NCBI RefSeq assembly: GCF_900083515.1
Contig: NZ_LT671858.1
Span: 1,530,001-1,562,000, forward strand
DNA: 32,000 nt
Direction of reading: 5' to 3'
DNA from: Cuniculiplasma divulgatum
GTDB lineage: Archaea; Thermoplasmatota; Thermoplasmata; Thermoplasmatales; Thermoplasmataceae
Shown: positions 834-23,601 of the stretch, in pieces
Layout: each line of letters opens with the position of its first letter
Position numbering within the stretch: position 1 is the stretch's first letter
Notes under the pieces: generated by a model
Told to the model about the DNA's origin: nothing
The model's input: only the letters and a program-made list of their open reading frames with translations
Database searches by the model: none
Made by a program: the position numbers and the translations under genes

Positions 834-1772
834 TTATGGAATAATCTTCTTTTCCTTAACCTTCGCTTCATCTGATATCTTCAGTGATTTTGCCTCGACA
901 TAATCAATATTACACCCTGCTTCAATAATTATGTCATCGCCCTTAACATATTTCGAATTTGTTGATTCAAGAAAAGCCCTGTTACAGATTATTTCATCTA
1001 TTTTTGCCTCTCCGGAAAGGAATCTTTTCTTCTGCAATCTTATTTCAACGATGTCAGATTGAAGCTTTACAACATGGCTTGTAGAATTGTATATCTTCAT
1101 TTCAAATCGCCTTGAACTAATGGAATCCGCATTTATCCTTCCGGAGATGTATATCTCATCCCCGGTTACAGTTCGAACTTCAACTAATCCGGAAGATTTT
1201 AACATAGTGCATTCGATTGATTCTGCCTTTGTCTTTCCGGAATTTTCAATATTCTTTGCCCTTAGCAATTTAGAAATCTTTGCTGAACCAGAACTTTCAA
1301 ACTCATCACATATGACTGATTCTGCACTGATTGAACCTGAAGACTCAAGTTCACATGCTTCCATATTACCTGCAATTTGAAGAGATCCAGAGGATTCAAT
1401 TTTATTTCCCCTTACGTTTCCTCCTATATGCATAGAACCAGAGGAATGAATTGTATCTGATGAAATAACATCCTTTTCCACCCTGCAGCTTCCTGAAACA
1501 TGAAAGAAGATCGAATCAATGCTACCATCAACGGTAAGAGAACCTGAAACTGAGGTCTCTTCTGCATACACCGATTGTATCATACCTGAACCAGATATCC
1601 TGATCTTTTTTGATCTCTCTGTCTTTGATTCTTCCTGTGCTTTTTCATCACGTCTTTCCTCCTTTTCAGATCCATTTTCCTCCCATCTTGACATGATCTC
1701 ATTAAACATGTCTTCACTCATCTTTCCGCCTGCAACCATTTCCCGAAGTTTTTTCTTTCTGTCTTCGTCCAT
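834..1772 (-). CDS. beta-helix repeat protein (bactofilin / polymer-forming cytoskeletal or DUF4097-like) with a charged N-terminal SHOCT-like segment
   Basis: 312-aa ORF with about ten degenerate repeats of the type xESSGSxxI(x)G. The N-terminus is Lys/Glu-rich and contains GGKMSEDMFNEIM. The antisense ORFs 1087-1380 and 1519-1845 are shadows of the repeat. Confidence 0.5.
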   Translation of the reverse strand: MDEDRKKKLREMVAGGKMSEDMFNEIMSRWEENGSEKEERRDEKAQEESKTERSKKIRISGSGMIQSVYAEETSVSGSLTVDGSIDSIFFHVSGSCRVEKDVISSDTIHSSGSMHIGGNVRGNKIESSGSLQIAGNMEACELESSGSISAESVICDEFESSGSAKISKLLRAKNIENSGKTKAESIECTMLKSSGLVEVRTVTGDEIYISGRINADSISSRRFEMKIYNSTSHVVKLQSDIVEIRLQKKRFLSGEAKIDEIICNRAFLESTNSKYVKGDDIIIEAGCNIDYVEAKSLKISDEAKVKEKKIIP

Positions 1773-5968: not shown

Positions 5969-7969
5969 ATGTCAGAAATGCAGTTTTCTGTTAGGAAGGG
6001 CGAGCAGATGGGTAAACCATTTGCCGGAAAGAGGGATATTATTGCAGTCAGGGTAGGTGAAAATCTTCATGATTTAATGGAAATTGCAGAAACTGACACT
6101 GATGTTTTACCAGTTACGCTGAATGATGAATACGGCCTGCATATACTGAGACATTCCGCCGCACACCTGCTTGCCCAGGCTGTAATGGAAATGTATCCAG
6201 ATGCCAAACTAAATGCAGGACCTGTTGTGGAAAATGGTTTTTACTACGACATAAAAATGGACCCACCTGATCAGGATAACCTTGATATGATAGAAAAGAA
6301 GATGAGGGAACTTGCATCTAAAAAGATACCCATTGTTCGTGAGGTACATAGGAAAAAGGATCTTAGGGAAATGTTCAGGGATAACAGGTTCAAGCTTGAT
6401 AAGATAAACGATTATGTTGGAGAAGAATCAACCGTATACAGACAGGGTGAATTTGTTGATTTCTGTACAGGCCCTCATGTGCCTGACACATCCTATATCA
6501 GGCATTTCAAGCTTCTCAATGTTGCATCTTCCAATTACAAGGGAGATATCAAGGAGGAGAGGCTCACAAGAATTTATGGAACAGCGTTCCCTGATGAGAA
6601 GTCACTGAAACAGTACCTGAAGAACAGGGAAGAGGCTGCACAGAGGGATCACAGGAAGATTGGATCTGAAATGGATCTGTTTGTTTTCAACTCTGAAAGG
6701 GCACCTGGTCTACCAATGTATACAGCAAAGGGTTCCGTCATAAGGAATGAACTCATAAATTTTATGAGGGAACTGAATGGCAAATTTGGATGGGAAGAGG
6801 TTACAACACCCCACTTGTTCAAGGATAACATGTGGAAGACATCTGGCCACTATTACAAGTACAAGGACGACATGTTTCTTTTCACACTGCCAGATGGTGA
6901 TTCATATGCGTTGAAACCCATGAATTGCCCAGGACATATAACCATATATGAAAACACAAGCCATAGCTACAGAGACATGCCAGTAAAGTTCAGTGAATTC
7001 GGAACAGTTTACAGATATGAGAAATCTGGAGAGGTGGGTGGATTAACAAGACCAAGAACATTCACTGTAGACGATGGACATGAATTCATGAGACCAGATC
7101 AGATTGAAGATGAAATAAAAAGTGTTCTTGATATGATGAAAATCACATTTAAAACATATTTTGATGAGATTGAGGTAAGATATGATCTTTCAGTTGCAGA
7201 TAAATCCAAGCCTGAGAATTATCTGATCAATTATAAATGCAGGAAATGTGGTCACCTGAATGAACCAAGAAGAATGTCCGCGGAGACAAATGAACAGAAA
7301 TGTGAAGAGTGTGGTTCTAAAGATCTCGAACCAGATTTCTCCCTCTGGGATAATGCCACAGAGCAGTTAAGAAATGCACTCGTATCATCTGGAATTGAAT
7401 TTAAGGAGTATCCAGGAGAGGCTGCTTTCTATGGTCCAAAGATAGATGTGCATATAAAGGATGCGCTTGGCAGATCCTGGCAGCTTACAACAATTCAGAT
7501 AGATTTCTTCATGCCCATAGCCTTTGGCCTTTACTTCATGAACCAGGAGAGCAAAAAAGAAACACCGGTTATGCTTCACAGGGCCATATACGGTTCAATA
7601 GAGAGATTTCTGGTGATCCTGCTTGAAAACTCCTATGGTAAATTGCCCACATGGCTTTCACCTATCCAGTGCTATATCATACCCCTCAGTGATCAGCAGA
7701 AAGAATATGCAGTTCAAGTAAATAAAAAACTGAAGGAATCTGGAATAAGAACATATCTTGATGAATCTTCTGAAAGCGTGTCAAAGAAGATCAAACTTGG
7801 AAGAAGATTCAGGCCATCCTATTTTCTAATACTGGGAGAGAGGGAAAAGGAAAACAGTGAAGTTTCGGTGAGGAACAGGAATGACAGGATTCAGAACCTG
7901 AAGATGGAAGAGTTCACGAAAAAGATCACTGAGGAGATCAGGGATAGATTCAGGGATCAAACGCTCTGA
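5969..7969 (+). CDS. thrS: threonine--tRNA ligase (bacterial-type editing domain) with a zinc-ribbon insertion
   Basis: Editing-domain HSAAHLLAQAV. Catalytic zinc ligand contexts PMNCPGH, VDDGHEF and MLHRAIYGSIERF. Class II motif 3 region GEAAFYGPKID. C-terminal anticodon-binding domain. Confidence 0.93.
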   Translation: MSEMQFSVRKGEQMGKPFAGKRDIIAVRVGENLHDLMEIAETDTDVLPVTLNDEYGLHILRHSAAHLLAQAVMEMYPDAKLNAGPVVENGFYYDIKMDPPDQDNLDMIEKKMRELASKKIPIVREVHRKKDLREMFRDNRFKLDKINDYVGEESTVYRQGEFVDFCTGPHVPDTSYIRHFKLLNVASSNYKGDIKEERLTRIYGTAFPDEKSLKQYLKNREEAAQRDHRKIGSEMDLFVFNSERAPGLPMYTAKGSVIRNELINFMRELNGKFGWEEVTTPHLFKDNMWKTSGHYYKYKDDMFLFTLPDGDSYALKPMNCPGHITIYENTSHSYRDMPVKFSEFGTVYRYEKSGEVGGLTRPRTFTVDDGHEFMRPDQIEDEIKSVLDMMKITFKTYFDEIEVRYDLSVADKSKPENYLINYKCRKCGHLNEPRRMSAETNEQKCEECGSKDLEPDFSLWDNATEQLRNALVSSGIEFKEYPGEAAFYGPKIDVHIKDALGRSWQLTTIQIDFFMPIAFGLYFMNQESKKETPVMLHRAIYGSIERFLVILLENSYGKLPTWLSPIQCYIIPLSDQQKEYAVQVNKKLKESGIRTYLDESSESVSKKIKLGRRFRPSYFLILGEREKENSEVSVRNRNDRIQNLKMEEFTKKITEEIRDRFRDQTL

Positions 7970-11946: not shown

Positions 11947-12159
11947 GTAGAATAATTTTGTTGATCAAAATATACCTTTTTTACCATGAAATTTTCATCA
12001 CCTAATTTATATTGTCTGCAGAACAACTTGGTATTAACTGTATTGAATATCCTTTAGGATAGTTTAAATCTACACCTAAAATTTATTCAAGCAGATCACC
12101 TCAAAGTAAACTTTTGTTTACTTACGTACTTAAATATTTTTTTTATTTTTACTACAGCT

Positions 12160-12723
12160 ATGGAGATAACTGGAAATAGGATTAACCTTCCCCTATCAAT
12201 GAAGGCAATCCATGAAACAATGCAAATAAAAAAGTACCTGATTCTATTTATTACAATAGCAGCACTTCTTACTGCCCTATATTTTATTTTGCTCCCAATG
12301 CTACCCTTTGGAGCATTTTTTCTGCCAGCAGTAAGATTCATAACTCCTATTCAGATCTTTTTCGCATTTGCGATGGGTATTCTCTTTTCGCTTCTAATCG
12401 TAACCGCTCTTCGTTCACATTCATACGGTCTAAAAATTAATAAGGGAATGGGTGCAACATCAATACTTACCAGCATTGTTAACGTATTCTGTTGTACACC
12501 AATTATTCCAACACTTATTGGAATTCTTGGTGCCTCTTCACCTTTTGTTTTCCAGTATTCTCCACCAATTCAGCATTTCTTTGCCGTGGATTACCCAATA
12601 TTCTACATAATTTCCATCCTGATGTTAACATATTCCATATTGAAAACAGCTTCGAGCCTGGGATGCTGTAATTTGGATGTTGTAAGGAGAGAAAACGTGA
12701 TATCACGAAAACAGGAGGCCTGA
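12160..12723 (+). CDS. polytopic membrane protein with an intramembrane CCxP motif and a C-terminal CC pair
   Basis: 187 aa, 4-5 hydrophobic helices. NVFCCTPIIPTLIGILG lies within a helix and SSLGCCNLD lies in the hydrophilic tail. A 6-nt gap separates it from the next gene. Confidence 0.6.
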   Translation: MEITGNRINLPLSMKAIHETMQIKKYLILFITIAALLTALYFILLPMLPFGAFFLPAVRFITPIQIFFAFAMGILFSLLIVTALRSHSYGLKINKGMGATSILTSIVNVFCCTPIIPTLIGILGASSPFVFQYSPPIQHFFAVDYPIFYIISILMLTYSILKTASSLGCCNLDVVRRENVISRKQEA

Positions 12724-12729
12724 TGTCTA

Positions 12730-13329
12730 ATGTCCAATTTAAAGAAGAAAAAAATGGAACAGTTAAGGAAAAAGAAGCTGGAAATGAGAAAGAGGATTGA
12801 GAAAGTTGCATTCTTATCAATAACGGTTGCCATTCTGGTTGTGGTGGGTATACACTATTCTGGTTCATTATCTGGAGGAAATCATAATGTAACGAAACCA
12901 AAACAGTCACTTACTGATTTTAATGTTTATTTGATAACAGATACTACCATATCAACAAAGTCTTTGGAAGGAAGTCCGTTGGTCGTGTGGTTCATGACAA
13001 CATGGTGTTCTTCATGTGCTGAGGGAAGTGAACTTCTTGCCTCACAGTATTACAACACATTCAGAACAGATGGCATACACCTGTTGCAGATCGAAAATTA
13101 CAATGACCTAAATGAGCAGGGAATGAGCCTACAGCAGTTTGTAACGCAATATGGAGGTGCGAACGAACCCGGTTGGTACATAGGAACATCTACTCTGTCA
13201 GTAACTCAGCAATATAACCCAACCAGTGCTCTTGATGTGTATTATTTGGTGAATTCACAGGGATACATTGTTGGCAGTGGACAGGGGCTTGGTGCTAACC
13301 TAAACAGCGTAATAGAGACGTTGGGGTGA
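12730..13329 (+). CDS. membrane-anchored thioredoxin-fold (TlpA/ResA-like) thiol-disulfide oxidoreductase
   Basis: Lys-rich N-terminus followed by one TM helix. PLVVWFMTTWCSSCAEG is a thioredoxin-like WCxxC active site. Confidence 0.7.
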   Translation: MSNLKKKKMEQLRKKKLEMRKRIEKVAFLSITVAILVVVGIHYSGSLSGGNHNVTKPKQSLTDFNVYLITDTTISTKSLEGSPLVVWFMTTWCSSCAEGSELLASQYYNTFRTDGIHLLQIENYNDLNEQGMSLQQFVTQYGGANEPGWYIGTSTLSVTQQYNPTSALDVYYLVNSQGYIVGSGQGLGANLNSVIETLG

Positions 13330-13674
13330 AGTTATGAATTTTGAGAAGAATCGAGAAGGAATCAAATGAGAAATCAATTTCCTTTGATTTCATAAGTTTA
13401 GGCTAGTTCTAGCTCCTTTTATTACAATCCGGCACAAGGTTCTCCATGCAGTGCAACCATGTGATTTTAGATAGAATTACAATTTCATTGGTGGATCAAG
13501 ATTCCAGGTCAAACGGACTACGATGAGTGACTGCATTTGACTTACTAATGAAAGATTTTCAGTCGTGCTTTATGGATACATACGTTATATAATAGGATAA
13601 ATTTAATATTAATTCTTCTAAGAATAAACCCTATCAATCTAAATTCATTGATTACTGTCTAAATTATTTAGACT

Positions 13675-14268
13675 TCATAGGCTTTGAGAAGAAAGGTTAT
13701 TTCTGACTGACATGTTTCTGAAATGTAACCATATTAGAATTGCACCATTAATCACGTCTATAAGGTATGAAACTTCCTCAAGATATATATCGAAAGCGAG
13801 GGATGCTGATGCTGACACAAATATTGCAATTGCAAAGTATATAATGGGAAAGGTGCAACATGCCCCCGTTGTTATTGTTGAGGCAAAAACTGAGAATGAT
13901 AGTTTCATCACATGCTTCCTTTTACTGCTCAGTGCCAACTGTTTAAACACATCCATTAGGGTAAGAAAAATGGCATAGCTCAAAAAAATTGTAAGTATTA
14001 CCGGAAATATAGGAAGCGAAATTTCGAAATGATATGTTGGGTACCAGTAAAATCCGCTGAACCCTAATAACATATGGATGTTATTGGACCAAACCAAAAA
14101 CATGATTCTATGGTTAATTCCATTGCTGATTGCCCCATACAAACTGCCCCTGTAATAGTCAAAAAAACCAGCTGAAAAGGCATCCATAACCCAGAGGCCT
14201 ATTGATATCAGCAGTGCCAGAAGCGATGGTATCCGGAAAGATTTAGTTGAATGGTTGCTGGAATGCAT
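13675..14268 (-). CDS. polytopic membrane protein with an intramembrane vicinal Cys pair, last gene of the merA operon
   Basis: 197 aa, 5-6 hydrophobic helices, TTGACCTFPIIYFAIAIF. It starts 26 nt after the merA stop on the same strand. Confidence 0.6.
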   Translation of the reverse strand: MHSSNHSTKSFRIPSLLALLISIGLWVMDAFSAGFFDYYRGSLYGAISNGINHRIMFLVWSNNIHMLLGFSGFYWYPTYHFEISLPIFPVILTIFLSYAIFLTLMDVFKQLALSSKRKHVMKLSFSVFASTITTGACCTFPIIYFAIAIFVSASASLAFDIYLEEVSYLIDVINGAILIWLHFRNMSVRNNLSSQSL

Positions 14269-14294
14269 TTATATTATCCCAAATGATGTGCTGT

Positions 14295-15740
14295 CTATTC
14301 AACACAGCACGCCATCTTTGAAAGATCCCTTATGAAGGATTGGGCAGCAAGTTTTATTCCCTCTGAAAATGAAGGGAATATATGGCTCGTTGCAATTATA
14401 TCATCGATGGTATAACCGTTCCTGACAGCGTAAGCACCCTCGGTTATGATATCTGTTGCGTTTGGGGCCATTATGTGCATACCTACAATTCTGTTGTCAT
14501 TTGGATCCACTGTAATCTTTATGACACCTTCAGTTTCGCCCATTATGCTTGCCTTCGTCAGGTTTTCAAGTGAAAATACCCTGCATGAACATGATCCGTT
14601 CTTCTTTGAGAACTCGTTTTCTGTCATTCCAACCCCTGCAATCTGCGGGCTTGTAAATACTGCCCATGTGGAGGAGTCATAATCAATCGTAAGATCTTCA
14701 CCAAACATGTTGTTCACTGCTATAACGCCCTCCCTTGCTGCCAGAGTTTCAAGAAACATCTTTTTGGAAACGCAGTCCCCTGCCGCATATATACCAGGCG
14801 TGGATGTCTTCATTTTTTCAGAAGTCACTATTTGCCCCCTTGAATCGACCTCAACGCCCGCGGACTTGAGATTCAGATATTGTGTGTTTGCATGCCTTCC
14901 AGTTGCAACTATGATCTCCTGGACTTCTATTTTTTCCTTTCCATTATGCGTTATAATATCAATTGATTTTCCATTCCCGGATCTGTTCACTGAACCGATT
15001 CTTGCCCCCAGGTGGAACTTCATTCCTTCCTTTTCCAGGAACCTCTTCATTGCCGAACTTATCTCTGGTTCTGTTTGTGGTAGAAGTGAATCCATTGCCT
15101 CAATCACTGTTATCTTTGAGCCGAAATGCATGAGAGCCTGACCTATTTCCAGTCCTATGGCTCCTCCGCCTATGATGGCAACTGACTCAGGCATTTCATT
15201 GAGTTCCCATATGGTGTCGCTGGTTAAGAATCCTGTTTCCTTCAATCCTTCAATATTCGGTACACTAGGGGATGAACCTGTTGCAATGAGAATGTTAGAT
15301 CCTGTGACCATAGAAATTTCATTCCCGTCAGAATCCGATACCAAGATGGTCTTCCTGTCGACGAATCTCCCAAGACCGTTGAAAAGTTTTACATTGCTGT
15401 AGTTTTCAATCACCTGAGCATATTTTGTGTCTCTTGCATGTGTAACGTATGATCTCAGGCCTTCCATCACCTCTGAGAAGTTATGTTTCACCTGAGTGGG
15501 GTATATGCCGGACATTCTGGGATGATTAGGTCTGAAAACTGAATGGGATGCCTCAAGCAGATATTTTGATGGGACACATCCCACGTTGACGCATGTACCT
15601 CCCAATGATCCCGTGCCTATCATGGCAATTGTCATCTCGCCATTGCTAAGTTCCGAGGCTTTGATTGCAGCTGAAAAAGAAGCTGCACCCCTTCCAAGTA
15701 TTACAAGATCAAATTTCTGTATCTCGCTCTTCAAGTTCAT
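14295..15740 (-). CDS. merA: mercuric reductase (core MerA without a fused NmerA domain)
   Basis: Redox-active GGTCVNVGCVPSK. FAD and NAD(P) GxGxxG motifs. C-terminal FSEGIKLAAQSFIRDLSKMACCVE carries the MerA-specific vicinal Cys pair. Confidence 0.9.
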   Translation of the reverse strand: MNLKSEIQKFDLVILGRGAASFSAAIKASELSNGEMTIAMIGTGSLGGTCVNVGCVPSKYLLEASHSVFRPNHPRMSGIYPTQVKHNFSEVMEGLRSYVTHARDTKYAQVIENYSNVKLFNGLGRFVDRKTILVSDSDGNEISMVTGSNILIATGSSPSVPNIEGLKETGFLTSDTIWELNEMPESVAIIGGGAIGLEIGQALMHFGSKITVIEAMDSLLPQTEPEISSAMKRFLEKEGMKFHLGARIGSVNRSGNGKSIDIITHNGKEKIEVQEIIVATGRHANTQYLNLKSAGVEVDSRGQIVTSEKMKTSTPGIYAAGDCVSKKMFLETLAAREGVIAVNNMFGEDLTIDYDSSTWAVFTSPQIAGVGMTENEFSKKNGSCSCRVFSLENLTKASIMGETEGVIKITVDPNDNRIVGMHIMAPNATDIITEGAYAVRNGYTIDDIIATSHIFPSFSEGIKLAAQSFIRDLSKMACCVE

Positions 15741-15747
15741 TCGCCTT

Positions 15748-15996
15748 TTACTGTTCCATGAGCGTTGCCTTGTAGTGTGATGGCTTTTCGAATACCTTGT
15801 TTTTAAGAAGTCCTTCTGGGCTTACCTTTGTGGGATCGAACTCAACCTCTCCAATGCCATCTTTCAGGGATACCTTCACATCTCTGACGCCTTCCTGATT
15901 CTTTAGGCCACGGCTAACTGTTCTTACGCAGTCATCACAGGTCATTCCATATATCCTCAGTTTTACTTTTCTTTCTTCCATAATTATACATAACAT
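15748..15996 (-). CDS. heavy-metal-associated (HMA) domain metallochaperone (MerP/CopZ-like)
   Basis: GMTCDDC metal-binding loop. About 75-82 aa, and the true start is possibly MEERK at 15981. A 7-nt gap separates it from merA. Confidence 0.85.
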   Translation of the reverse strand: MLCIIMEERKVKLRIYGMTCDDCVRTVSRGLKNQEGVRDVKVSLKDGIGEVEFDPTKVSPEGLLKNKVFEKPSHYKATLMEQ

Positions 15997-16214
15997 TCGT
16001 GTATTAAAGTTGGAAAGTAAATTATTGTTTACCTATCGAAATGAAGATGACTCACTATGCGAAATAATTTTTATACTGAATATGATTCTTCTCCATAATA
16101 TTGAAATATTTCAATCCTTGTTGATTCTACAAGAATTGAAAGCCATAATTCCTTATTTTTCATACATATTAACATGTAAATTTCAGAAGCATTTATGATC
16201 AGTTATGTGAAAAA

Positions 16215-16306
16215 ATGCAATTATAATGCAATTTTGATGCAAATAAAATGAAACATTAATGCAATGGTAAAAAAAGAAATGCAACATTGATGCAATTAAA
16301 ATGCAG
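16215..16306. repeat. 11-bp phased tandem array of ATGCAA
   Basis: ATGCAA/ATGCAG at 16215, 16226, 16237, 16259, 16279, 16290 and 16301, with degenerate ATGAAA at 16248. Spacings are 11/11/(11)/11/20/11/11. Confidence 0.8.
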
Positions 16307-17945: not shown

Positions 17946-18329
17946 GTGGAAATGAAAGAAGCTCACGCGGCTGATGAGAGAGGGTATGTCATAATGCCTG
18001 AAAACCAGAGCATTAACGTAGAAAGATCTGAAGATATTCTGAATTTACTCGGCAAGAAATATTCACTGCTCATTATTGGTATTTTGGGAATTGATACTAC
18101 GATGAAATTTAATGATATAAAAAAAATCCTTGGATGCCCATCGTCGAATATTCTGACAGCACGACTTAGGGAGATGAATAGTGCAGAAATTATTGATAGA
18201 AATGTTGTACAATCCTCCCCGATTTCAGTTATGTACTCGCTAACTAAGAAAGGTATAGAACTGAGAAAGAATCTAATTCCACTTTTCAGCTGGATTGAAT
18301 ATAATTGCCCTAGAACGAAGTTAAAATAA
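17946..18329 (+). CDS. HxlR-family winged-helix transcriptional regulator
   Basis: LLGKKYSLLIIGIL...MKFNDIKKILGCPSSNILTARLREMNSAEIIDRN...VMYSLTKKGIELRKNLIPLFSW matches the HxlR (DUF24) pattern. The start is GTG 17946 or ATG 17952. Confidence 0.7.
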   Translation: MEMKEAHAADERGYVIMPENQSINVERSEDILNLLGKKYSLLIIGILGIDTTMKFNDIKKILGCPSSNILTARLREMNSAEIIDRNVVQSSPISVMYSLTKKGIELRKNLIPLFSWIEYNCPRTKLK

Positions 18330-18331
18330 AT

Positions 18332-18367
18332 AAACTAGGTATACTTTATAAACTAGGTATACTTTAC
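18332..18367 (+). promoter_or_regulatory. tandem 18-bp direct repeat (candidate operator) upstream of a TATA-like box for the second mer operon
   Basis: AAACTAGGTATACTTTAT followed by AAACTAGGTATACTTTAC, each with a GTATAC palindrome core. The CTATATATTA box at 18377-18386 lies ~25-30 nt before the ATG at 18409, which suggests a leaderless or short-leader mRNA. Confidence 0.5.
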
Positions 18368-18408
18368 TTAACAATTCTATATATTAGGTTGATTCACATC
18401 TATGAAAT

Positions 18409-18642
18409 ATGACACAAAAAAAGGTTGAGCTAAAGATATTCGGAATGACGAGCAACGAATGTGAAGGGCTTGTCTCTAAGGGACTCAAAACGAGAGATGG
18501 TGTAAAAGATGCGGTTATCGATTTTAAGCTTGGACTTGGCACGGTGGAGATAGATGACACAAAAGTTTCTCCAGAAGACTTGATTCGGCTTCCGGTGTTC
18601 ACCCAGTCGCATTACCGGGCACAGATAAGGAAGGTGGAGTGA
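18409..18642 (+). CDS. HMA-fold protein with a degenerate metal-binding loop (GMTSNEC)
   Basis: It is alignable along its whole length to the 15748-15996 product, but the first Cys of CxxC is Ser (AGC). Confidence 0.8.
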   Translation: MTQKKVELKIFGMTSNECEGLVSKGLKTRDGVKDAVIDFKLGLGTVEIDDTKVSPEDLIRLPVFTQSHYRAQIRKVE

Positions 18643-18648
18643 TTTTAA

Positions 18649-20082
18649 ATGTCTAAAGAATTTGATTTAATTATATTCGGTAACGGAGTCGCTGCATTCT
18701 CTGCGGCAGTAAAGGCTTCTGAGGTAACTTCCCAAGGGGCCAGCATTGCGATGATAGGCACAGGGCCACTTGGAGGAACTTGCATGAATGTGGGATGTGC
18801 CCCCTCAAAATACCTTCTGGAAGCCTCTCACCAGATATACCTTCCCGGGCATCCAAAGATGAGAGGACTTCCGTCTACAAAGATTGAACACGATTTCTCT
18901 TCTATCATGGAAGGTCTTAGATCATACGTGGACCATACACGTAAGACAAAATTTGTCGACATGTTGCAGAATTACCCAAATGTAACTGTGTACGATGGAC
19001 TGGCCAGGTTCGTGGATAGTAGAACTGTTCAGATAACAGATCAGGACGGAAAAGTTAAAGATGAGATCACCGCGCCGAATGTACTGATTGCAACAGGCTC
19101 ACACCCAACCGTTCCGAATATTGAGGGTCTCATGGAAACTGGTTTCCTTACAAGTGACAGTATCTGGAACATTGGCAGCTTGCCGGAAAGCATAGCGATA
19201 ATAGGTGGGGGGGCTATAGGACTTGAGATTGGACAGGCTTTGTTGCACTTTGGTTCCAAGGTAACCATAATAGAGGCTTTGGATATAATTCTTCCACAGA
19301 GTGAACCTGAGATAGGTCAGGCGCTTATGCTCAGACTTCAGCAGGAAGGTATGAATTTCTATCTCGGAGCCAGAGTCAGTTCTGTGGGGAAAGAGTCAAA
19401 CGGACATAAATATATTGAGTTCATAACACACAAGGGAAATGAGAAAATAGAAGTCTCTGAGATAATAGTAGCCACCGGCCGTCAACCAAACACTTCAAAC
19501 CTGAATCTGGAAGCCGCAGGGGTAAAAACTGATGGTAGAGGTCTCATTGTAACCGATGCGAGGATGAAGACAACATCGAGTGGAATTTATGCCGCTGGAG
19601 ATTGTGTTTCAAAGACGATGTTCCTGGAGACCCTTGCAGTAAGGGAAAGCATCGTTGCAGTAGGCAACATGTTCGGCGAGAGTGCTGAGATCAATTACAT
19701 GTTCGCGGCATGGGCCGTATTCACGTACCCACAGGTAGCAGGTGTCGGGATGACCGAGAAGGAATTCTCCAAACTAAAAGGATCATGCTCGTGCAGGACA
19801 TCTTCATTGGCGAACACAATCTATGCCAGCATAACTGGAGAAACCGATGGAATCATAAAAATCACAATAGATCCGGAAACAAATAAGATTGTTGGAATGC
19901 ACATTTTTGCACCCAATGCAACAGATCTCATAATTGAGGGTGCATACTCCGTGAGGTTGGGACTCACATATGATGATATAGTTGCATCAGGACGTATATT
20001 TCCGTCATATTCTGAAGGAGTAAAGCTAGGGGCTCAATTGTTCATCAGGGATGTTTCTAAAGCTTCGTGCTATGTTGAATAA
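18649..20082 (+). CDS. MerA-like pyridine nucleotide-disulfide oxidoreductase paralog lacking one C-terminal cysteine
   Basis: GGTCMNVGCAPSK is intact and identity to the merA product is roughly two-thirds by eye. The C-terminus is SKASCYVE instead of SKMACCVE (TAT vs TGT). Confidence 0.85.
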   Translation: MSKEFDLIIFGNGVAAFSAAVKASEVTSQGASIAMIGTGPLGGTCMNVGCAPSKYLLEASHQIYLPGHPKMRGLPSTKIEHDFSSIMEGLRSYVDHTRKTKFVDMLQNYPNVTVYDGLARFVDSRTVQITDQDGKVKDEITAPNVLIATGSHPTVPNIEGLMETGFLTSDSIWNIGSLPESIAIIGGGAIGLEIGQALLHFGSKVTIIEALDIILPQSEPEIGQALMLRLQQEGMNFYLGARVSSVGKESNGHKYIEFITHKGNEKIEVSEIIVATGRQPNTSNLNLEAAGVKTDGRGLIVTDARMKTTSSGIYAAGDCVSKTMFLETLAVRESIVAVGNMFGESAEINYMFAAWAVFTYPQVAGVGMTEKEFSKLKGSCSCRTSSLANTIYASITGETDGIIKITIDPETNKIVGMHIFAPNATDLIIEGAYSVRLGLTYDDIVASGRIFPSYSEGVKLGAQLFIRDVSKASCYVE

Positions 20083-21852: not shown

Positions 21853-21906
21853 TAAGTAAATTTTTCTTTACTTATATGTATTAATTGTGGGTTGCAATTG
21901 TATATT

Positions 21907-22302
21907 ATGGCAGACGAAAAATTTATGAGGACTATGGTAAAGACAATGGCTACTATGCCAGATGAACAAAGAAGAACGATGCTGAATGACAGACTCAGAA
22001 GCTTCATCGAACTATCGGACCAGGAAAGGGAAAACGCAATGAAGTCAATGCTAGTCGCGGCCCTTTCCCTGAACGAAGATGAATATCTCAAAATAGCGGA
22101 AACTAGAACTCACGTGGTAATGTCCCTGGAACAGAGTGACAGGATGAAGCTCATGAAAACACAACTGGTCGTCGTATCATCTCTTGAACCCTCACTGAAG
22201 CAGAAGGAGATGGAAACTATGAGGAAAGTCCTTCAAAGGCTTCCTGAGCAGCAGTCTCAGATGATGAGGAAGATGCTCGCGGAGAATGGGCTGGAACTAT
22301 AG
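21907..22302 (+). CDS. Met-rich helical-repeat protein of unknown function
   Basis: About six tandem ~19-aa units of the form L-[PSNE]-[DE]-[EQ]-x-R-x-x-M-x-x-M/L. The ATG at 21907 is preferred over TTG 21892, with a TATA-like TTATATGTATTAA ~25 nt upstream. Confidence 0.65.
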   Translation: MADEKFMRTMVKTMATMPDEQRRTMLNDRLRSFIELSDQERENAMKSMLVAALSLNEDEYLKIAETRTHVVMSLEQSDRMKLMKTQLVVVSSLEPSLKQKEMETMRKVLQRLPEQQSQMMRKMLAENGLEL

Positions 22303-22308
22303 CGATAG

Positions 22309-23601
22309 GTGTTTATATTGACTGCAAGTGGATTTTTCGGTCCTTTTTCCCCTGGGACCGGAATAGGTTTTTACATTTTACCCCCTGTTCTGATTCTTCT
22401 TGCCATAACTCTTTCCATGACCCTTCCCATAACAAAAAGGGTGAAGTGGTCAACTTACAGAAGACCATTATATGTTACTGCAGTCCTGTTTGAGAATTGG
22501 ATCAGTGTTGTAGGATTAGTACTAATTCTTGTAGCACCGCCTGGAGTAGGGACCGAATCTAAGGCAATTTATTTTCTACTTACTATAATTATTTTCTGGG
22601 CTGCAACAATAGTACTGGCAAGCAAAAGGATACAGAGCAGGTTCATACCCGAGATGGGTCTTTTCAGGCCGGATCTGTTATATCCAACCGGTGCTAACCT
22701 GGCAAGGGGTGAAATATTCGCCGGACTTGGCCTTAAACTCATGCTTACCATCACCCCGGTTTCAATACATAACTTTGCATGGCTCCCCGTATGGAACTGG
22801 TGGGGTCTTTTATGGGCAGAACTATCCATGGTATTTTTGGTAGCTGTACGGGGCATGACAAAGTTGAAAGTAGTACTGATGGGGCGTATGATAAAACAGA
22901 AAATGCTTGGTTGGAGAGGAACCCTGCTCGAAGAAGGTTTCCTTTATCTTGGATTTACGGGACTTTCGTACGGTTTTCTAAATGTTTTCATGGGTTATAT
23001 CCCTTTTACAGTAGTCTATCCTAGATTTTGGCCCGGAGCACTGATTATGGTTATCGCGGCAATAATACTTATTCCGGTAAGGGGTTACCTGAAGCATAAG
23101 GTTGACAGGATAACCATGTCCTACAGGCGCACACTTGGGCTAATGGCCTTGCTATACCTTGGTGTAATGGTTCTCATGTACGGAATGATTGTAATGCTCA
23201 TGGGAAGATTCCTGGTAGTTACAACAACTCTGGGACTTGTTCTGGGGCTATTTTTACAGATACTTGGTATTAGTGTAATAGTATTTGGCAGGGCAAGATC
23301 GATAATGAATGACAGGAAAGGTATGCTGCCTCAGATGCTCTGGGTTTTATCCCATGCAGATGAACAGGACAGACAGAGAGTCATGAAAACGAGATTGGAA
23401 ATCTTTGCATCAATGAATGAAAAGGAGAGGTATGTAAACATGAAGAATATGTATGATGCCCTTATGCAGCTACCAGATGAAAATCAGTCCAAAATGCTTG
23501 GAACACAGATGATGGCACTTTCTTATCTAGAATCAGAAAAAAGGGGCAGGTGCATGCGAACAATGGATAGAATAACTTCAATGGGGGTGTCACAAGAATG
23601 A
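22309..23601 (+). CDS. polytopic membrane protein with a C-terminal cytoplasmic domain of the same Met-rich repeats
   Basis: 430 aa with ~9-10 hydrophobic helices. The last ~90 aa (ADEQDRQRVMKTRL..MNEKERYVNMKNM..LPDENQSKMLGTQMM..LESEKRGRCMRTM) repeat the motif of the upstream gene. The GTG start lies 6 nt after the previous stop. Confidence 0.65.
   Translation: MFILTASGFFGPFSPGTGIGFYILPPVLILLAITLSMTLPITKRVKWSTYRRPLYVTAVLFENWISVVGLVLILVAPPGVGTESKAIYFLLTIIIFWAATIVLASKRIQSRFIPEMGLFRPDLLYPTGANLARGEIFAGLGLKLMLTITPVSIHNFAWLPVWNWWGLLWAELSMVFLVAVRGMTKLKVVLMGRMIKQKMLGWRGTLLEEGFLYLGFTGLSYGFLNVFMGYIPFTVVYPRFWPGALIMVIAAIILIPVRGYLKHKVDRITMSYRRTLGLMALLYLGVMVLMYGMIVMLMGRFLVVTTTLGLVLGLFLQILGISVIVFGRARSIMNDRKGMLPQMLWVLSHADEQDRQRVMKTRLEIFASMNEKERYVNMKNMYDALMQLPDENQSKMLGTQMMALSYLESEKRGRCMRTMDRITSMGVSQE

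Follow-up and report, generated by a model that had tools for sequence, protein, structure and literature searches.

Reviews of mer evolution describe archaeal mer loci as lacking transport functions and often as consisting of merA alone (PMC3466566), and mer transporters are reported to be absent from Archaea, with the exception of one Ferroplasma that has a merP homologue (Boyd and Barkay 2012, PMC3466566). The Sulfolobus mer locus consists of an ArsR-type regulator, a TRASH-domain protein and merA (PMC3466566), and Thermoplasmata-type loci with only merA and merP have been described by Yelton et al. (PMC3750248) and in a geothermal metagenome study (bioRxiv 10.1101/2020.02.03.933291). Here, we analyzed a stretch of 32,000 nt of the Cuniculiplasma divulgatum genome (GCF_900083515.1, NZ_LT671858.1, positions 1,530,001-1,562,000; hereafter the window), in which an operon for an HMA metallochaperone and the mercuric reductase MerA ends in a gene for a 197-aa orphan membrane protein, designated mem197. 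We give roughly even odds (about 0.5) to mem197 being a thiol relay of a mercury regulon, which delivers Hg(II) to the HMA chaperone in the cytoplasm and to MerA; its invariant buried CCxxP motif, and the promoter site that its relatives share with merA genes, make it a credible first candidate for an archaeal mercury uptake or hand-over protein. No description of the mem197 family, or of the promoter palindrome associated with it, was found in the literature.

All three genes of the operon lie on the minus strand. The first (15748-15996) encodes the HMA metallochaperone (PF00403, E-value 1e-11) with the motif IYGMTCDDCV. Its open reading frame (ORF) spans 82 aa and has no signal peptide in its sequence, indicating a cytoplasmic protein, and the start is likelier at Met6 (15981), as homologues open with ME(E/M)xKVKLRIYG. 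In NCBIfam, CopZ- and MerP-type models matched this protein, every one under its cut-off; the HMA gene of such loci is named 'merP' in the literature. The second gene (14295-15740) encodes a 481-aa protein identified as MerA by three features, namely a score of 526.2 bits against the equivalog TIGR02053 (cut-off 454.45), a redox CxxxxC motif (CVNVGC) and a C-terminal vicinal cysteine pair (MACCVE); Pyr_redox_2 and Pyr_redox_dim were also matched. The third gene, mem197 (13675-14268), encodes a protein with four predicted transmembrane helices (TM1-TM4). The genes are arranged head to tail with gaps of 7 nt (15741-15747) between HMA and merA and 26 nt (14269-14294) between merA and mem197, and the sole palindrome near the operon sits upstream of HMA. 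Because the 26-nt gap is too short to hold a TATA box at promoter distance, mem197 is most simply read as a real, co-transcribed third gene of the HMA-merA operon. The sequence just 3' of its stop contains an A+T-rich inverted repeat, GTCTAAA-TAA-TTTAGAC (13657-13673, minus strand), which is possibly the end of the transcript. The order, motifs and gaps of the operon are thus as an earlier, sequence-only reading of this DNA had given them, and the intramembrane Cys-Cys-Pro pair on which that reading was built also stands, with C137 and C138 placed in the predicted TM3.

These two residues are the sole cysteines of mem197, which contains TTGACCTFPIIY. The codons of C137-C138-T-F-P141 occupy 13846-13860 (minus strand). 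Among about 1850 ORFs crudely called over the whole 1.94-Mb genome, nine Cys-Cys dipeptides occur in hydrophobic stretches, and only two of them have a proline within 2-3 residues, one in mem197 and the other in a 187-aa ORF (mem187) 1 kb away. Since the only two such motifs of the genome both lie in the mer island, the motif of mem197 is not due to chance.

mem197 matched no model of Pfam or NCBIfam, and nothing useful was obtained from a PDB sequence profile, Foldseek against PDB, a wide VIA-align search or the ESM Atlas. TARP/claudin four-helix proteins with an outer beta sheet, which formed the top Foldseek rows, were rejected (TM-scores 0.23-0.30, probability at most 0.18), VIA-align Z-scores of 7-9.5 were attributed to generic helical bundles and not to relatives, and a match to DUF2070 (E-value 0.38) was regarded as noise. 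Homologues were recovered from large sequence collections. A word-seeded search of 5.8 billion clusters yielded four relatives, an exhaustive phmmer search of 1.84 billion representatives yielded eight family members, and a profile search added six more clusters, which form a deep-branching clade typified by the member in genome G020. All matches with a name or source are hypothetical proteins of Thermoplasmata/Thermoplasmatota. The family is present in 8 of the 164 genomes of the order; at class level 10 of 399 genomes matched, about five with Cys-bearing members, three with Cys-less paralogues only and two with weak partial matches. A 7-sequence profile retrieved two loci from metagenomes, one a strain variant of the window locus, and the genome search retrieved six loci.

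An alignment of 15 Cys-bearing members, which share 17-65% identity with the window protein, has G135, C137, C138 and P141 as its sole invariant columns. The cysteine pair, whose conservation among homologues the sequence-only reading had proposed to examine, is therefore kept in 15 of 15 members, and in most of the family it is the only cysteine present. The G020-type clade keeps a second vicinal pair in the cytoplasmic C-terminal tail. A Cys-less sister group is found within one taxonomic family, where SP or AP replaces the pair; 9 of the 10 genomes of this family match mem197, mostly in the Cys-less form, which is not linked to mer genes. One member, in genome G482 (L071:12600-13170, minus strand), is frameshifted between its first helix and the remainder, by either pseudogenization or an assembly error, and the palindrome about 45 nt upstream of its ATG is intact.

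An AlphaFold2 model of mem197 was built from 19 input sequences (mean predicted local distance difference test (pLDDT) 77.6, predicted TM-score (pTM) 0.69). Its helices cover residues 12-33, 87-112, 118-150 and 153-196, and the cysteine pair lies in the third. This helix is kinked, running over 118-139, breaking at F140-P141 (residues 140-141) and continuing over 142-150. A beta-rich loop bearing a conserved YWFPTxH (residues 36-86) connects TM1 and TM2. Summed over the family, the charges are +40/-15 at the N-terminus, +62/-3 in the TM2-TM3 loop, +51/-14 at the C-terminus and +24/-28 in the outer beta loop. By the positive-inside rule, this distribution places both termini inside and directs TM3 from inside to outside, with the cysteines at residues 15-16 of the 28 in this helix. 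The predicted geometry is the same as that of the CCxxP helix (TM1) in the MerT and MerF sequences that we fetched from plasmids: a vicinal cysteine pair with a proline at +3, mid-helix, in a helix predicted to run from inside to outside and to be followed by a second one. The two systems are further alike in that their genes are coupled with those of MerA and of an Hg-binding partner of HMA fold, and the second, C-terminal pair of the G020-type clade recalls the cytoplasmic tail of MerF. In contrast, mem197 has four transmembrane helices and a beta-rich outer loop with its pair in TM3, whereas MerT and MerF carry theirs in TM1 of two or three. In addition, mem197-family genes follow merA or diverge from it rather than precede it, and the HMA partner is cytoplasmic here, not periplasmic.

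Other mercury systems resemble the locus in part. MerC and mycobacterial MerH, which are accessory transporters of patchy distribution (PMC3466566), also have four predicted transmembrane helices and a cysteine pair in a helix. However, the one MerC fetched has CAMCFP, a CxxC pair in the first helix, in contrast to the vicinal pair of mem197, and the MerC model of Pfam matched none of the 19 members at E-values up to 10. The sequence-only reading had ascribed CCxxP to MerT, MerC and MerF alike; the motif is present in the four MerT and one MerF sequences fetched but not in this MerC. The Sulfolobus locus likewise has an archaeal merA, a small metal-binding partner and lineage-specific accessory genes, without MerT, MerP or MerC (PMC3466566). 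The partner here is an HMA and not a TRASH protein, the regulators beside the cassettes are of HxlR and not ArsR type, and no membrane protein with a cysteine pair is reported for the Sulfolobus locus (PMC3466566). No genome among the 164 of the order has a PF02411 (MerT) match above the cut-off, in agreement with the published view (PMC3466566) and with the statement of the earlier reading that canonical transporters are missing from archaeal mer loci.

Nine genomic contexts of the family were readable, in the window and in genomes G020, G355, G442, G235, G492, G428, G343 and G482. In four of them (window, G020, G355 and G442) the member adjoins HMA or HMA-merA, which involves three clades and two arrangements. 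In the window, mem197 is downstream of merA and co-directional with it. In G020 (L016), an HxlR gene is followed divergently by HMA, merA, a 65-aa two-helix ORF with GCCAIP and a 227-aa family member, a layout repeated in G080. The member of G355 is divergent from HMA-merA. In G442 (L058), the contig ends in an HMA fragment, from which the member diverges and is separated by an inserted IS605-type gene; next after the member comes a 271-aa protein that is Cys-rich in its N-terminal part and HMA-like in its C-terminal part, and a homologue of a Met-rich module of the window lies nearby. In a maximum-likelihood tree, the merA-linked members fall into three separate clades, the deepest included. 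Elsewhere, the neighbours are a MFS transporter and an aldo-keto reductase (G428), a transposase fragment (G343) or an ArsA-like ATPase (G482).

A shared promoter site connects these genes further. Comparison of the G355 and G442 intergenic regions with the window promoter gave the palindrome GTAAA-N6-TTTAC, usually in the form GTAAAC-WWWW-GTTTAC. The window holds three exact sites against 0.01 expected. The first, GTAAATTATTGTTTAC (16017-16032), precedes the likely HMA start (15981) by 36 nt and adjoins a TATA-like box, TTTAATA; the second, GTAAACTTTTGTTTAC (12106-12121), is 38 nt upstream of the mem187 start; the third, GTAAATTTTTCTTTAC (21856-21871), is 20-36 nt upstream of the Met-rich module (21892-23601). 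Of the eight exact sites of the whole genome, four are in the promoter regions that immediately precede mer-island operons, at 20-54 nt from the listed starts. The fourth of these is in the HxlR-HMA intergenic region of another cassette, and a third cassette has a one-mismatch copy in this position. Because the palindrome is genome-wide no commoner than its reversed control, the evidence lies in where the sites are. Taking a palindrome upstream of the first gene of a transcription unit, 20-54 nt from its listed start, as the mark of regulon membership, the window operon belongs to the regulon.

In other genomes, the site occurs between HMA and HxlR in G235, in G428 and in three cassettes of G442. 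In the four of these cassettes that are complete, one each in G235 and G428 and two in G442, it is 35 nt from the HMA start; of the seven sites in the G442 genome, five are at HMA, HxlR or mem197-like promoters. It also precedes mem197-family genes that are not beside merA (G235, G343, G428 and G482), and in the first three of these genomes merA is on another contig. The palindrome is upstream of the family member, or of a small ORF leading it, at loci L013, L015, L056, L058 and L071 and about 150 nt upstream at L014; L059 has a one-mismatch copy only, at the same place upstream of a mem187 homologue, and L016 has none. A DUF929 gene and the operon of mem187 and a thioredoxin-like protein are likewise preceded by it, and no copy was found at the loci of Cys-less paralogues. 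A G343 site (contig C4) inside an HMA coding region, where it reads V-K-N-G-L, was counted as chance, and the same probably applies to two G442 sites whose spacers are G+C-rich. The shared site therefore places the Cys-bearing subfamily in one regulon with HMA-merA, the mem187-thioredoxin operon, a DUF929 gene and the Met-rich module.

Judging from their position, the HxlR-family regulators encoded beside HMA-merA probably bind this palindrome. Several of them (G000:C1:66882-67262 and 568042-568449; L016:12853-13242; L075:149-571; L076:2043-2426; L077:2289-2687; L058:6866-7243) have an N-terminal CM(I/V)-x8-C(I/V)xPS motif with two cysteines, a possible sensor of metals or thiols that is missing from the HxlR copy in the window (17946-18329).

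On this basis, the following relay can be proposed. mem197 would span the membrane four times, with both termini inside and the beta-rich TM1-TM2 loop outside, and would hold its single vicinal cysteine pair at the proline-induced kink in the middle of TM3. Under Hg induction of the regulon, Hg(II) from the outside or from the membrane phase would be captured as a bis-thiolate on C137 and C138, be handed by ligand exchange to the CxxC of the HMA chaperone in the cytoplasm, and move on to the C-terminal cysteine pair of MerA and then to its active site, where it would be reduced to Hg(0). The logic would be that of bacterial MerT/MerF on an unrelated scaffold, and the C-terminal pair of the G020-type clade, like a similar tail pair in mem187, would give a two-pair layout as in MerF. 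The thioredoxin-like and DUF929 neighbours could serve as partners at the outer face in the manner of MerP. A wider picture, which we advance tentatively and rate somewhat short of even, is that Thermoplasmata own a machinery for Hg uptake and hand-over that is independent of the bacterial MerT/P/C/F. In this machinery, an HxlR-type regulator acting on GTAAAC-N4-GTTTAC would control HMA-merA, at least two unrelated membrane proteins with buried CC(x)xP (mem197 and mem187), extracytoplasmic thioredoxin-like or DUF929 proteins and a membrane module rich in Met. mem197 would then be the first Hg(II) importer of archaea, with a CCxxP helix convergent with that of MerT/MerF.

Several results weigh against the Hg(II) relay and have to be set beside those above. 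The first concern the likeness to MerT/MerF. Against a shallow comparison profile of 4-6 sequences (four MerT, one MerF and one MerC), hhalign gave the family a probability of only 12-18% over 20-36 columns on the Cys-pair helix. When the two cysteines and the proline were masked to alanine in the query alignment, the MerT/MerF match was lost, and the best remaining match (E-value 0.73) was in another region; the Cys-less paralogues gave no hhalign match to the MerT/MerF/MerC alignment. The family also fails to match the MerT/MerF model at its curated threshold: among the 19 members, the best PF02411 score belongs to the 98-aa fragment P0011 (E-value 0.0034, 17.8 bits against a cut-off of 32.9), and the G482 gene reaches 16.3 bits. 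The window mem197 has, in addition, no second, cytoplasmic cysteine pair. Because the likeness is limited to the motif and the architecture differs, mem197 does not belong to MerT/MerF and is read here as an analogue of them, not a homologue. The MerT/MerF resemblance drawn by the sequence-only reading thus survives for the motif and the inside-to-outside helix and falls away beyond them. mem197 may nonetheless work like MerT/MerF; it is a new, unrelated scaffold, and the job it does is probably of a known kind.

The second group concerns confidence, distribution and specificity. The AlphaFold2 model is least confident around TM3, where the motif lies (pLDDT about 62 over residues 111-150). 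About half of the family contexts are away from merA, and three of the nine (window, G235 and G492) are beside thioredoxin-like or DUF929 genes. merA above the cut-off was found in 71 of the 399 genomes of the class, of which about five carry a Cys-bearing member, and 30 other merA loci of the class have no membrane ORF with a cysteine pair within 1.5 kb. The co-occurrence with merA expected by the earlier reading hence recurs beside HMA or HMA-merA in other genomes but is far from general. Cys-less paralogues adjoin genes of cytochrome oxidase subunit II and haem O synthase (L017:9655-12883, L018, L019 and L020). Moreover, HxlR-family regulators commonly sense thiol-reactive compounds generally, and given this the regulon may not be Hg-specific. 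Since 30 other merA loci do without such a gene, mem197 is dispensable for MerA function and is an accessory, not a core, mer component. As a candidate for Hg(II) uptake or hand-over it keeps the conserved pair, the mer linkage and the shared palindrome on its side, and a thiol-redox role has to be rated alongside.

In such a role, mem197 would relay electrons in the membrane by thiol-disulfide exchange, as CcdA/DsbD do, reducing extracytoplasmic thioredoxin-like and DUF929 proteins and so repairing surface thiols under mercury or thiol stress, without carrying Hg(II). Likenesses to CcdA/DsbD are the transmembrane cysteines next to a proline and the membrane-anchored thioredoxin-like neighbours, which with the DUF929 genes accompany members in three lineages. 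mem197 is convergent with the mem187-thioredoxin operon in the window, the G235 member has a DUF929 gene on each side, and mem187, thioredoxin, DUF929 and mem197-like genes are all co-directional in G492. The palindrome also precedes the DUF929 gene and the mem187-thioredoxin operon, and one cysteine pair suffices for CcdA-type relays. However, CcdA is a six-helix protein with two separated cysteines in different helices, whereas those of mem197 are vicinal and encoded in a mer operon; mem197 has no separated PCxxP-type pair and no Pfam match to the DsbD/CcdA families, and vicinal disulfides are strained and do not usually serve as redox relays. The thioredoxin-like gene of the window is coupled, by a 6-nt gap, to mem187 and not to mem197, and the DUF929 neighbours have a CPIG motif with a single cysteine in place of CxxC. 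An electron relay would also leave the place of the gene behind merA, and the divergent pairing with HMA-merA, unexplained. We therefore consider this role unlikely.

A role with another soft metal, such as Cu(I), Ag(I) or Cd(II), or as a passive membrane sink or Hg(II) buffer without directed hand-over to MerA, appears rather improbable. It would fit the HMA partner, which scores CopZ-like as well as MerP-like under the respective cut-offs, and the Cys-rich, HMA-like 271-aa protein after the L058 gene. It would fit, too, the oxidase neighbours of the Cys-less paralogues, which at L017 lie beside a 260-aa membrane protein (GGATCCISLP) and a membrane protein with ferredoxin-type CxxCxxC motifs, a neighbourhood that hints at a link of the family scaffold to assembly of the oxidase metal centre. 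However, the enzyme repeatedly linked to the Cys-bearing members is MerA, above its equivalog cut-off, no copper ATPase/CopA adjoins any of those inspected, and HMA-merA promoters carry the shared operator. A structural or unrelated role, for example as the descendant of an oxidase subunit riding with a metal-resistance island, its cysteine pair having no metal or redox function, would suit the near-universal Cys-less paralogues of the one family (9 of 10 genomes, not mer-linked) and the mosaic island with its insertion sequence (IS) elements, but is very improbable given that G135, C137, C138 and P141 alone are invariant in the Cys-bearing subfamily, that merA linkage recurs in three clades and two arrangements, and that the palindrome accompanies the gene even away from the island.

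For the route by which Hg(II) reaches archaeal MerA, mem197 offers a concrete candidate with a clear mutational target in C137, C138 and P141, and the palindrome regulon links mercuric reductase with several further uncharacterized membrane and surface proteins that are rich in Cys or Met. With members in 8 of the order's 164 genomes, the family is rare, and mem197 would be an accessory route rather than a general answer. If the Hg(II) relay holds, the CCxxP thiol relay would have been invented convergently in a different fold, and acid-mine and geothermal metagenomes could be read with new markers of mercury resistance.

The mem187-thioredoxin operon (12160-13329, plus strand), convergent on mem197, encodes the 187-aa membrane protein mem187 and a membrane-anchored thioredoxin-like protein (WCSSC) and is probably in the same regulon as the mer operon. 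mem187 has FCCTPIIP in a helix and GCC in its C-terminal tail. The thioredoxin-like protein matched AhpC-TSA/Redoxin weakly and is ResA-like (E-value 4.5e-9). mem187 represents an orphan family of 14 clusters, from Thermoplasmatota where the organism is named, and the pair is kept at 72-74% identity in G492, upstream of DUF929 and the mem197 homologue. Paralogy of mem187 with mem197 was not detectable, the BLASTP match (E-value 0.005) covering a segment without the motif, and a relation of mem187 to MerT/MerF was rejected at a comparison probability of 0.9%.

The 65-aa two-helix ORF of G020 (L016:10623-10820, minus strand; LFGCCAIPLIL), which lies 89 nt downstream of merA and before the 227-aa member, adds a third type of small membrane protein with buried CCxxP to the mer loci of Thermoplasmata; it has no MerF or MerE match in Pfam. 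Between the palindrome and the mem197-like gene, an ORF of 35-45 aa is present on the plus strand in G355 (L013:1017-1121), G442 (L058:1863-1973) and G428 (L056, about 7750-7870). It has a C2H2-zinc-finger-like CxC-G-x-SF-x-EEL-x-H-x4-H and a Cys-rich tail (DDC, KCCE, DCSC). The G343 copy is divergent from the family member (L015, about 1077-1200, minus strand), the G492 copy is degenerate, and the window has none.

The genome contains four HMA-merA cassettes in total, one of them with mem197, and the MerA proteins of the other three share 83%, 64% and 44% identity with the first copy in the window. Two cassettes are outside the window (G000:C1:66882-69029 and 568042-570156), each with a divergent HxlR-type gene and with the palindrome, exact or with one mismatch, between HxlR and HMA. 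The other is a second cluster in the window, HxlR-HMA-MerA (17946-20082), in which both Hg-binding pairs are one cysteine short (HMA GMTSNEC; MerA ending in SCYVE). Its MerA is still above the TIGR02053 cut-off (469 bits), and its promoter has a tandem 18-bp repeat in place of GTAAA-N6-TTTAC. The mer island as a whole is a mosaic with IS elements, and a run of repeats containing TGCAT/TTGCAT extends over 16215-16306, between the mer promoter and an IS3-type element.

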